Of a DNA stretch of 64,000 bases, positions 18,188 through 19,183 are shown in pieces. Made by a program: the position numbers and the translations under genes. Location of the stretch: contig NZ_JAPNJZ010000012.1 of assembly GCF_026626765.1 (NCBI RefSeq), forward strand, positions 141,012-205,011. Reading direction: 5' to 3'. The DNA is from Corallococcus sp. bb12-1. Its GTDB lineage: Bacteria > Myxococcota > Myxococcia > Myxococcales > Myxococcaceae. The notes below the pieces were generated by a model that saw nothing but the letters and a program-made list of their open reading frames with translations, did no database searches and had not been told where the DNA came from. Position 1 is the stretch's first letter; each line of letters starts with the position of its first letter.

Positions 18188-19183
18188 ATGGGAGACACGC
18201 TCGACGTCGTCGTGGACCTGGGGGACGTGGGAGAGACGGCCGCGGACGCCGTCCTGCTGAAGTACGCGCAGGGCTTCCACGGTGCGGACGGCGCGGTGGC
18301 CCGGCGGCTGGAAGGGGTGGGCATCGCCACCGACACCCTCACGGTGCTTCCCGGGGACCACCGTCTCATCGAGACCCGGGGCGGCCTGGGTTCGCCCTGG
18401 GTGCTCTTCCTGGGCACGGTGCGCCTGCGCCAGTTCGGCTACCACGAGATCCGCCAGTTCTCCGTCCGCGCGCTCCAACTCCTGGAGCCGCGTCCGACGC
18501 TCCGCCACCTCGCGTGCACGGTGCACGGGCCCAACTACGGGCTCGACGAGGACGAAGCGGTGCTGGCCCTGGTAGGCGGCTTCGTGGATGCCTTCCAGCG
18601 GGGCGTGGGGCCGCGCGACCTGGAGCGCGTCACGGTGGTGGAAATCAATCCCAAGCGCGTGGAGCGGATGCGCAAGGCCCTGGCGACAGGCCTGGGCGCC
18701 ACCACAGGGGTGGAGCCACTGCCCGGCGGCATGGGCTTTCGCGTCCGGCGCACGTCCCGGTTCGTCGCGGCGGCCCCCATGGCCAGCGCGGGCGCGAACT
18801 CGAATGAGAAGCCCCATGCCTTCGTGGCGATGCCGTTCGCACCGGAGCTGGAGGACACCTACCACTACGGCATCCTGGGGCCGGTGAAGTCCGCCGGGCT
18901 GCTCTGCGAGCGCGTGGATCAGGCCACCTTCGACGGCCCCATCATCCAGCGCATCCGGGACCGCATCGACACCGCGAAGGTCGTCATCGCGGACCTGTCG
19001 CTGGCGAACCCCAATGTGTATCTGGAAGTGGGCTACGCCTGGGGGCGGGGCAAGCCCACGCTGATGCTGGTGCGGGACGTGCGGGAGCTGCGCTTCGACG
19101 TGTCCAGCTATCGCTGCCTCGTCTATCGCAACATCCGGCACCTGGAAGAGGTGCTCACCCAGGAACTGCAGCGGCTCCTCTGA
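18188..19183 (+). CDS. Two-domain protein: tentative N-terminal Macro-like domain plus a C-terminal nucleoside-2-deoxyribosyltransferase-like (NDT/TIR-like flavodoxin-fold) domain
   Basis: Start at MGDTLDVV, just after the hydrolase gene's stop. The C-terminus (FVAMPF...VVIADLSLANPNVYLEVGYAWGRGKPTLMLV) fits the NDT/YtoQ-like pattern. The N-terminus (GADGAVARRL...CTVHGPNYG) resembles a Macro fold only weakly. Confidence 0.55.
   Translation: MGDTLDVVVDLGDVGETAADAVLLKYAQGFHGADGAVARRLEGVGIATDTLTVLPGDHRLIETRGGLGSPWVLFLGTVRLRQFGYHEIRQFSVRALQLLEPRPTLRHLACTVHGPNYGLDEDEAVLALVGGFVDAFQRGVGPRDLERVTVVEINPKRVERMRKALATGLGATTGVEPLPGGMGFRVRRTSRFVAAAPMASAGANSNEKPHAFVAMPFAPELEDTYHYGILGPVKSAGLLCERVDQATFDGPIIQRIRDRIDTAKVVIADLSLANPNVYLEVGYAWGRGKPTLMLVRDVRELRFDVSSYRCLVYRNIRHLEEVLTQELQRLL

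Follow-up and report, generated by a model that had tools for sequence, protein, structure and literature searches.

Does a myxobacterial protein that joins a divergent Macro-like domain to an NDT-like domain act as a ligand-controlled N-glycosidase?

What might a bacterium do with a single protein that joins a divergent Macro-like domain to a domain resembling nucleoside 2-deoxyribosyltransferases (NDT)? The question is raised by the gene at 18188-19183 in a 64,000-nt stretch of Corallococcus sp. bb12-1 (contig NZ_JAPNJZ010000012.1, positions 141,012 to 205,011), hereafter the window. Its product is probably a ligand-gated enzyme that cleaves NAD+ or a nucleotide, because in other microbes domains of cell death and immunity are found fused to this two-domain unit. 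A more specific version, which we advance tentatively as quite possible, holds that the protein is a self-contained enzyme in which the Macro domain, on binding a ligand of the ADP-ribose type, regulates an NDT-like N-glycosidase that acts on NAD+ or another nucleotide. The gene and its parts are as follows.

18188..19183, + strand: complete gene of the Macro-like plus NDT/DrHyd-like protein, with ATG start and 331 aa (from the open reading frame (ORF) list and translation); orthologue of M. xanthus MXAN_3123
18188..18748, + strand: N-terminal divergent Macro-fold domain, aa 1-187
18245..18289, + strand: Macro 'loop 1' region with D20, K25 (canonical Asn position), G32 and D34, from conservation and the YmdB alignment
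18518..18556, + strand: Macro 'loop 2' region, T111-x-H113-G114-x3-G118-L-D120-E121-x-E123, a near-invariant signature placed by the YmdB alignment
18761..18802, + strand: inter-domain linker, aa 192-205, predicted to be disordered (predicted local distance difference test, pLDDT, <50); here the alignment varies most and has most gaps
18803..19180, + strand: C-terminal NDT/DrHyd-like (TIR-related) flavodoxin-like domain, aa 206-331
19025..19027, + strand: codon of Glu280, the predicted catalytic Glu, within the invariant motif NPNVYLEVGYAWG, from the MilB alignment and conservation

A GTG start at 18005, which would lengthen the ORF, was rejected because it overlaps the upstream hydrolase gene and because orthologues start at the ATG, nearly all of them at the equivalent of MGDTL. 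An AlphaFold2 model of the whole protein, built on 31 orthologues, has a mean pLDDT of 83, with residues 1-187 mostly above 90. Neither the library scan nor the model revealed a transmembrane or SIR2 domain in the protein. The architecture had been said from the sequence to match no known system, and no Pfam, NCBIfam or PADLOC model spans the whole protein; the NCBIfam scan gave zero matches.

When the N-domain was compared with the PDB by Foldseek, it matched PARP14, macroH2A1.1, Af1521 and YmdB with E values of 1e-9 to 1e-5, as well as TTHA0132 and the macro-like N-domain of leucine aminopeptidases. It has the three-layer alpha/beta/alpha fold with a mixed central sheet that defines the Macro superfamily. 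Sequence searches gave fainter signals: the top match of the N-domain profile among PDB sequences was E. coli YmdB, only marginal at E~0.05, and Pfam Macro (PF01661) did not match the domain even at E<=1. The N-x(6)-GG[VLI]-D and G[IVA][YF]G motifs of PF01661/MacroD-type domains are missing, with D20 and D34 alone retained.

To describe conservation, we aligned 80 representatives that are 34-57% identical to the protein. Near-invariant positions of the N-terminal half are D13, D20, K25, A27, G32, G76, Y85, T111, H113, G114, G118, L119, D120, E121, E123 and G131; the loop 1 residues D20, K25, G32 and D34 are each invariant or at least 90% conserved. In the alignment with YmdB, D20 falls on the Asp of 'DVIVNAAN' that contacts adenine, G32-x-D34 falls on 'GVDGAI' of the YmdB GGGGVDGAI loop, and T111-x-H113-G114-x3-G118 falls on the diphosphate-binding 'ISTGVYG' loop with a one-residue insertion. 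Loop 2 therefore differs from that of MacroD-, YmdB-, Af1521- and PARP-type macrodomains in its form, T-x-H-G-x3-G-L-D-E, which is one residue longer. Judged from these alignments, the pocket-forming loops are the conserved part of the Macro domain and the MacroD catalytic signature is not kept. Conservation concentrated on two pocket loops points to binding of an ADP-ribose-type ligand, a pointer that is suggestive only.

The C-domain, modelled separately (pLDDT 86), matched a cyanobacterial NDT, BcmB and DNPH1/Rcl in Foldseek (E 2.5e-6 to 1e-4, TM-score ~0.7) and, further down the list, SARM1 TIR and TIR-STING. It has the flavodoxin-like NDT fold of the NDT/DrHyd superfamily. With the Macro matches above, this bears out the original prediction of a Macro-like N-terminal half followed by a flavodoxin fold of the NDT/TIR clade. 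Pfam PF05014 (Nuc_deoxyrib_tr) aligned with aa 252-301 at E=1e-5 and 26.1 bits, and a relative, P0121, passes the cut-off of this model with 40.3 bits. The TIR family models PF01582, PF13676, PF10137 and PF08937 did not match the protein.

Searching PDB sequences with the full protein returned weak matches to MilB, a CMP hydrolase, alone. The catalytic Glu of MilB shares an alignment column with Glu280, and this is the column in which chain 4ohb, a MilB mutant, has Ala. By this alignment Glu280 takes the place of the catalytic Glu of the NDT/DrHyd superfamily, in the helix after strand 4; the corresponding residues are, we presume, E98 in NDT, E93 in DNPH1 and E103 in MilB. Glu280 is at least 90% conserved in the 80 sequences and sits in the near-invariant motif NPNVYLEVGYAWG. 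Other near-invariant positions of the C-terminal half are F212-VAMPF217, D223, C240-E-R-x-D244, F248, G250, I260, A268, N274, N276-V, L279-E280, G282, A284-W-G286, F303-D304 and Y313, and D269 is conserved too. Going by motif spacing and not by superposition, N274, six residues before the Glu, would stand at the position of NDT Asp92 (Ser in DNPH1 and MilB), and D269 would lie near that of NDT Asp72. The metabolic N-glycosidases NDT, DNPH1/Rcl, MilB and BcmB are only 12-22% identical to the C-domain; unlike them, the family has motifs of its own (FVAMPF, LCERVDQ, NPNVYLEVGYAWG and RFDV) and is always fused to a Macro-like domain.

A conflict-system relationship of the C-domain is suggested by the PADLOC model of the CBASS 'Effector TIR' (PDLC00733), of which positions 290-362 of 388 match aa 249-321 at E=4e-13. 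All C-domains examined match this model at positions ~260-363 only, leaving the first ~260 unmatched. Searches of plasmids and phages found matches to the C-domain alone, at 30-38% identity, in proteins whose N-domains are unrelated to the Macro-like domain (hhalign probability <1%); one of these proteins is encoded beside AbiEi/AbiEii and insertion sequence (IS) elements, another among integrases. From this distribution, the C-domain clade appears to behave as a catalytic effector behind interchangeable N-terminal domains. Additional variants of the sensor-effector kind may be encoded by two plasmid genes of the same clade, each with an unrelated, unannotated N-terminal domain and each in a region rich in integrases or in AbiE and IS elements: one from Bacillus mycoides (L093, 5434-6387, 317 aa) and one from Paraburkholderia sabiae (L094, 5530-6369, 279 aa).

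The conserved residues of the Macro domain also bear on a different division of labour, in which the NDT-like domain makes an ADP-ribose product or adduct and a catalytic Macro domain, instead of being a receptor, removes it as a product-processor or 'safety catch' (cf. DarG and macro-fused SirTM). The near-invariant loop 2 residues H113, D120, E121 and E123, together with D34, could be catalytic, and writer/eraser pairs of Macro domains with NAD+-using enzymes have been described (PMC9503650). However, the domain lacks the canonical Asn of the MacroD type, and its GGG loop is shortened. Moreover, enzymes of the NDT clade (NDT, DNPH1, MilB) are not known to make protein or DNA adducts, and we regard this division of labour as quite improbable.

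How far does the two-domain unit extend beyond Corallococcus, and what accompanies it? A profile search over 1.84 billion cluster representatives (clusters at 50% identity) gave 18,887 hits at E<=1e-3, 6,583 at <=1e-10 and 564 at <=1e-30. Both domains were matched in all 150 best representatives, about three quarters of which are stand-alone proteins of ~320-370 aa; 41 are longer. More than half of these longer members (22/41) carry an N-terminal TIR_2 domain. CHAT is present in two, effector-associated domain (EAD) 7 in three (P0252, P0212, P0185), EAD1 in two (P0165, P0211), EAD11 in one (P0186) and bacterial Death-like domain 1 (bDLD1) in one (P0263), and there are single cases of an HTH, a DUF4062, a C-terminal HD, an astacin-like and a second NDT domain. 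Read by eye in the alignment, the fused TIR domains seem to be of visibly different subtypes, most of them with a Glu in the region of the TIR-NADase Glu; the difference in subtype argues for several independent fusions. Outside the 41, a metagenome-assembled genome (MAG) of Methanosarcina sp. UBA402 encodes a 626-aa protein with a caspase (Peptidase_C14) and the Macro-NDT unit (L080, 9146-11026), which shows the dyad crossing the boundary between bacteria and archaea within a putative cell-death protein. Relatives are encoded in 417 of 185,579 species genomes. Holders outside Myxococcota belong to Acidobacteriota, Chloroflexota (Caldilineaceae, Ktedonobacteraceae, Chloroflexia), Binatia, Longimicrobium, Armatimonas and Bacteroidota, in addition to the Methanosarcina MAG.

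Through these TIR, CHAT/caspase, EAD and Death-like fusions, and through the match to the CBASS effector model, the earlier idea of a nucleotide-signal sensor or effector is supported at the level of the family. A constant unit with variable enzymatic fusions (TIR, CHAT, caspase, HD) also resembles the logic of SAVED, CARF and STING, and non-catalytic sensor versions have been described in the TIR/DrHyd/SLOG clade (PMC9503650). The unit could on these grounds be a pure two-domain sensor that lacks catalysis, like inactive SLOG/TIR-clade sensors, and regulates a fused effector or one encoded elsewhere. We think this very unlikely: some three quarters of the 150 best representatives have no extra effector domain and the family has no conserved neighbour, which would leave a sensor nothing to control; the catalytic Glu and its surrounding motif are almost invariant; and an EAD or Death-like adaptor is as a rule joined to an effector (PMC7159879, PMC8195603).

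By analogy, the protein would work most like the ThsA-type sensor-effector fusions and the NDT/TIR-like effectors of CBASS and type II retrons. In common with Thoeris ThsA, it would hold a nucleotide-sensing domain and an effector in one chain; the Macro domains of type II (TM-Macro) ThsA bind ADP-ribose-type signals (PMC11204291), and the output of type I ThsA (SIR2-SLOG) is destruction of NAD+. TIR-fused Macro-NDT relatives would hold all three Thoeris activities in one chain. Unlike Thoeris, the protein has no adjacent ThsB/TIR gene, no transmembrane or SIR2 domain and no PADLOC Thoeris match, its effector fold is NDT-like, and its gene is a core syntenic myxobacterial gene rather than an island gene; it does not classify as a ThsA. 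The CBASS 'Effector TIR' and type II retron effectors share with it an NDT-like toxic effector fold behind a regulatory part. Unlike the CBASS effector, the protein matches only 73 of the 388 PDLC00733 positions and has a Macro fold as its regulatory part, and no CD-NTase is present among the eight genes scanned around it (13954-22294), so that it is no CBASS effector as these are defined. Nor does it belong to a type II retron: its neighbours are hydrolase, cNMP-binding, astacin and D-Ser-dehydratase-like (DSD) genes, with neither a reverse transcriptase nor an ncRNA close by, and no reverse transcriptase was found in the orthologous loci. According to literature from 2024, the NDT-like effector of Retron-Eco1 reportedly hydrolyses NAD+. 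That effector, from the type II retron Ec86, has been described as NDT-like (PMC12405507).

The fusions invite a further comparison. TIR, DRHyd and Macro domains have been described as NAD+/ADP-ribose-processing effectors of conflict systems, attached via EADs and enriched in multicellular prokaryotes (PMC7159879, PMC8195603, PMC9503650). Relatives of the protein resemble such EAD-linked effectors (Kaur, Burroughs, Iyer and Aravind 2020/2021) in carrying an N-terminal EAD1, EAD7, EAD11 or bDLD1, an arrangement described for TIR, DRHyd, caspase and Macro effectors (PMC7159879, PMC8195603), and the family is likewise enriched in Myxococcota, Chloroflexota, Acidobacteriota and similar phyla. Unlike those effectors, the protein itself starts directly with the Macro domain and has neither an EAD nor an NTPase neighbour, which places it outside that class; the EAD-fused relatives lie on contigs too short to reach an NTPase partner. 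A literature search found no paper on MXAN_3123 and, in a search that did not reach the main domain survey, no description of or experiment on the Macro+DRHyd dyad.

Is the gene a recent arrival, as a conflict gene might be, or a resident of the chromosome? The genes around it that enter the answer are these.

16382..17272, - strand: gene of a protein with two cNMP-binding domains (PF00027, E=5e-47)
17449..18159, + strand: gene of a dienelactone-hydrolase-type alpha/beta hydrolase, immediately upstream of the Macro-NDT gene and divergent from the cNMP-binding gene
19295..20311, + strand: gene of an astacin-like (M12) metallopeptidase (PF01400, 27.5 bits) with an intact HEAGHTLGFPH zinc motif (HExxHxxGxxH)
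21542..22294, - strand: 250-aa ORF with a GC content of 0.655, on the other side of the DSD gene

The protein shares 99% identity with its counterpart in Corallococcus terminator CA054A, and full-length orthologues with 56-99% identity occur across Myxococcota, among them M. xanthus MXAN_3123 (69%) and proteins of Archangium, Hyalangium, Vitiosangium, Pyxidicoccus and Kofleriaceae. In Myxococcaceae it is encoded by a single-copy chromosomal gene. A syntenic block that runs from Lnb_N through the Macro-NDT gene and the convergent DSD gene to Peptidase_S9 is common to Corallococcus, Citreicoccus, Myxococcus and Pyxidicoccus. The protein has diverged from M. xanthus as its neighbours have (69%, versus 69% for Lnb_N, 69% for DSD and 80% for Peptidase_S9), and the same holds within Corallococcus (88-90% versus 79-92%). 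The GC content of the gene is 0.699 (GC at third codon positions, GC3, 0.91) against a window mean of 0.686. Because of this synteny, neighbour-like divergence and native GC, the gene is apparently an old, vertically inherited chromosomal gene with no recent acquisition. Some database records with orthologues probably bear wrong names: 'Comamonas sp. KCTC 72670' (L036) has a 70%-identical protein in a Myxococcus-like locus, and contigs of 'uncultured Enterobacterales' MAGs (L059, L060, L068) have 69-72% GC and myxobacterial-type orthologues. Two of the latter, L059 and L060, are contigs of one MAG that agree in gene layout, percent identity and E value and look like duplicates.

We called genes in 43 non-redundant diverse loci and counted as operonic neighbours those on the same strand within 200 bp. 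The 56 neighbour proteins so defined, from 29 of the 43 loci, include di-haem peroxidases, amidases, methyltransferases and similar genes, with no recurrent partner except the di-haem peroxidases in one MAG lineage. TIR-fused forms (L078, L099) lie in ordinary contexts apart from an orphan DNA methyltransferase by P0122. This gene, for an N6/N4 DNA methyltransferase (L099, 5171-6643, - strand), is divergent from the TIR-Macro-NDT gene and occurs on two independent metagenome contigs.

Such behaviour is what a housekeeping enzyme of nucleotide or ADP-ribose metabolism would show, one whose two domains process an ordinary metabolite one after the other with no signalling or conflict role in myxobacteria; the Macro domain might, for example, deacylate or dephosphorylate an ADP-ribose derivative and the NDT-like domain hydrolyse a nucleotide that is damaged or in excess, as do the enzymes DNPH1, MilB and LOG. 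The gene is single-copy, syntenic from Corallococcus to Myxococcus and Pyxidicoccus, native in GC and diverging with its neighbours, which are ordinary metabolic genes and not defence genes, and the solved folds nearest to the C-domain are the metabolic N-glycosidases MilB, NDT, DNPH1 and BcmB. Against this stand the repeated independent fusions to TIR, caspase/CHAT, EAD1/7/11 and Death-like domains, which are hallmarks of conflict and cell death and not of salvage, the patchy occurrence outside Myxococcota (417/185,579 species genomes) and the replacement of the MacroD catalytic Asn by Lys. We consider a purely metabolic role unlikely and nevertheless give it some credence, since core-gene behaviour in Myxococcaceae and ordinary neighbourhoods keep it alive.

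The downstream astacin gene raises the possibility of a partner. The original prediction had described a protease lacking a signal peptide at a sharp drop in GC content, and had read the pair as an acquired two-gene module. The protease is as described: besides its Pfam match and intact zinc motif, it has a hydrophilic N-terminus, hence no signal peptide. The drop in GC is real, but it is modest, and it starts after the Macro-NDT gene, at the astacin gene (GC 0.646, GC3 0.85). To examine the partnership we ran tblastn across 90 loci, compared synteny in tables and looked at the contexts of two other astacin homologues. An astacin gene occupies the site only in C. terminator CA054A, MAG PMG_225 and C. 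praedator (L012, L011, L046). Within this clade it is 83-88% conserved, versus 91-99% for flanking genes, and so evolves faster than they do. C. llansteffanensis, C. sicarius, C. coralloides, C. exercitus, C. interemptor, Citreicoccus, Myxococcus and Pyxidicoccus all retain the Macro-NDT gene and lack the astacin there. The homologue of C. llansteffanensis lies at an unrelated locus, and another family member likewise has no Macro-NDT neighbour. The astacin family has 4,630 hits, mostly stand-alone proteins of ~320 aa, with 60-70% identity even in Acidobacteriota; its size and this identity suggest horizontal spread of a cytoplasmic astacin.

A module in which the Macro-NDT protein senses a nucleotide and activates a neighbouring cytoplasmic protease, the two having been acquired together, would account for the same-strand adjacency with a gap of 111 bp in the window and three close relatives. 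It would also agree with the missing signal peptide and with P0154, a 594-aa metagenomic protein (L006, 8001-9785) in which the Macro-NDT unit is fused to an astacin-like domain 28% identical to the astacin of the window. Yet the astacin is absent from the site in many Corallococcus species and other genera in which its supposed partner stays, its homologues are unlinked, and the low GC is confined to the astacin gene. In P0154 the zinc motif is degenerate, HQFGRAIGLNPEH (HQFGR...), so that its astacin-like domain is probably a pseudo-protease, and it is the only one of the 41 long forms to carry such a domain. The synteny thus largely refutes the joint module, which we find scarcely credible, and indicates that the astacin alone was inserted: it is a later, lineage-specific insertion beside a native gene and not a conserved partner. 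The P0154 locus also carries a phage-integrase fragment and toxin-antitoxin-like genes (DUF433, Unstab_antitox).

The other genes at the locus vary as well. The ORF at 21542-22294, for which no Pfam, NCBIfam or PADLOC match was found, is confined to the C. terminator/praedator/PMG_225 clade, as is the astacin, and has the look of another small insertion at this locus. The Corallococcus species examined retain the cNMP-binding gene, which Myxococcus lacks. The hydrolase gene is kept only in the terminator and llansteffanensis/sicarius groups and is absent in C. coralloides, exercitus, interemptor and Myxococcus; in the window, its stop codon lies 28 nt before the ATG of the Macro-NDT gene, so that the two may be co-transcribed. 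A scan for promoters and terminators yielded nothing usable.

Returning to the proposal of a ligand-controlled glycosidase, we picture its mechanism as follows. The C-terminal domain would be the catalytic part, with Glu280 as the catalytic carboxylate, and would cleave the N-glycosidic bond of NAD+, as TIR domains and some NDT-like immune effectors do, or that of another nucleotide. The divergent Macro domain would bind an ADP-ribose-type ligand, possibly a signal made by TIR, a product of the enzyme itself or a target that carries ADP-ribose, and would thereby switch or tune the glycosidase. The unit of Myxococcaceae would work with no operonic partner; in other lineages it would be wired into cell-death and immunity circuits by TIR, caspase/CHAT, EAD and Death-like fusions.

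Several observations weigh against this proposal. In the Macro domain, an invariant Lys25 occupies the position of the first Asn of macrodomains, so that the canonical MacroD catalytic Asn is lost; the GGG loop is cut to a single Gly (G32); and the HGxxxGLDE loop is unusual. Binding of ADP-ribose is therefore not assured. In the C-domain, the PF05014 score falls below the gathering cut-off of 28.8 bits. The whole-protein model has a predicted TM-score (pTM) of 0.59, and the inter-domain geometry, hence any allosteric coupling, is therefore not confidently predicted. The original prediction had also looked to defence-gene neighbourhoods, which for the stand-alone form are largely wanting: no defence families are found among the 56 operonic neighbours. 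Given its synteny, native GC, neighbour-like divergence and lack of nearby defence genes, this form acts like a core gene, unlike mobile defence genes. Scanning the window with a hidden Markov model of the fused TIR domains turned up no TIR ORF, so that the source of a signal, if one is needed, is not local. Finally, it is from the folds, conserved residues, phyletic and synteny pattern and fusions that we infer a substrate, a ligand, a direction of control and a biological role, and the first two are guesses.

A bolder extension of the proposal, rather improbable in our judgement, would make the Macro-NDT unit the receptor and executioner half of a Thoeris-like NAD+/ADP-ribose pathway. The TIR-fused form would then unite the whole pathway, signal maker, receptor and effector, in one chain. 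Myxococcota, for their part, would have domesticated the unit into a core gene, one that answers TIR- or stress-made ADP-ribose signals in trans and depletes NAD+ or nucleotides to bring about programmed death or dormancy, for instance in developmental lysis or abortive infection.

The family to which the protein belongs is large and experimentally unstudied, with 564 clusters (50% identity) below E=1e-30 and members in 417 species genomes. The N-domain of the family has no Pfam model, and in public databases family members are annotated as 'hypothetical' or, misleadingly, as 'nucleoside 2-deoxyribosyltransferase'. The fusion pattern of the Macro-NDT unit is striking, whereas its function is something that we infer. 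Even if the protein were a plain metabolic enzyme, there would still have to be a reason why TIR, caspase and Death-like modules have captured the unit repeatedly. If the proposed function is true, a Macro domain gating an NDT-like glycosidase would be a third sensor-effector pairing, beside SLOG-SIR2 and Macro-TM, among ADP-ribose-gated effectors, and each TIR-Macro-NDT protein would be a compact candidate, encoded by one gene, for TIR-signal immunity. MXAN_3123 would then be a conserved, single-copy candidate for NAD+/nucleotide-based control of cell fate in a multicellular bacterium.

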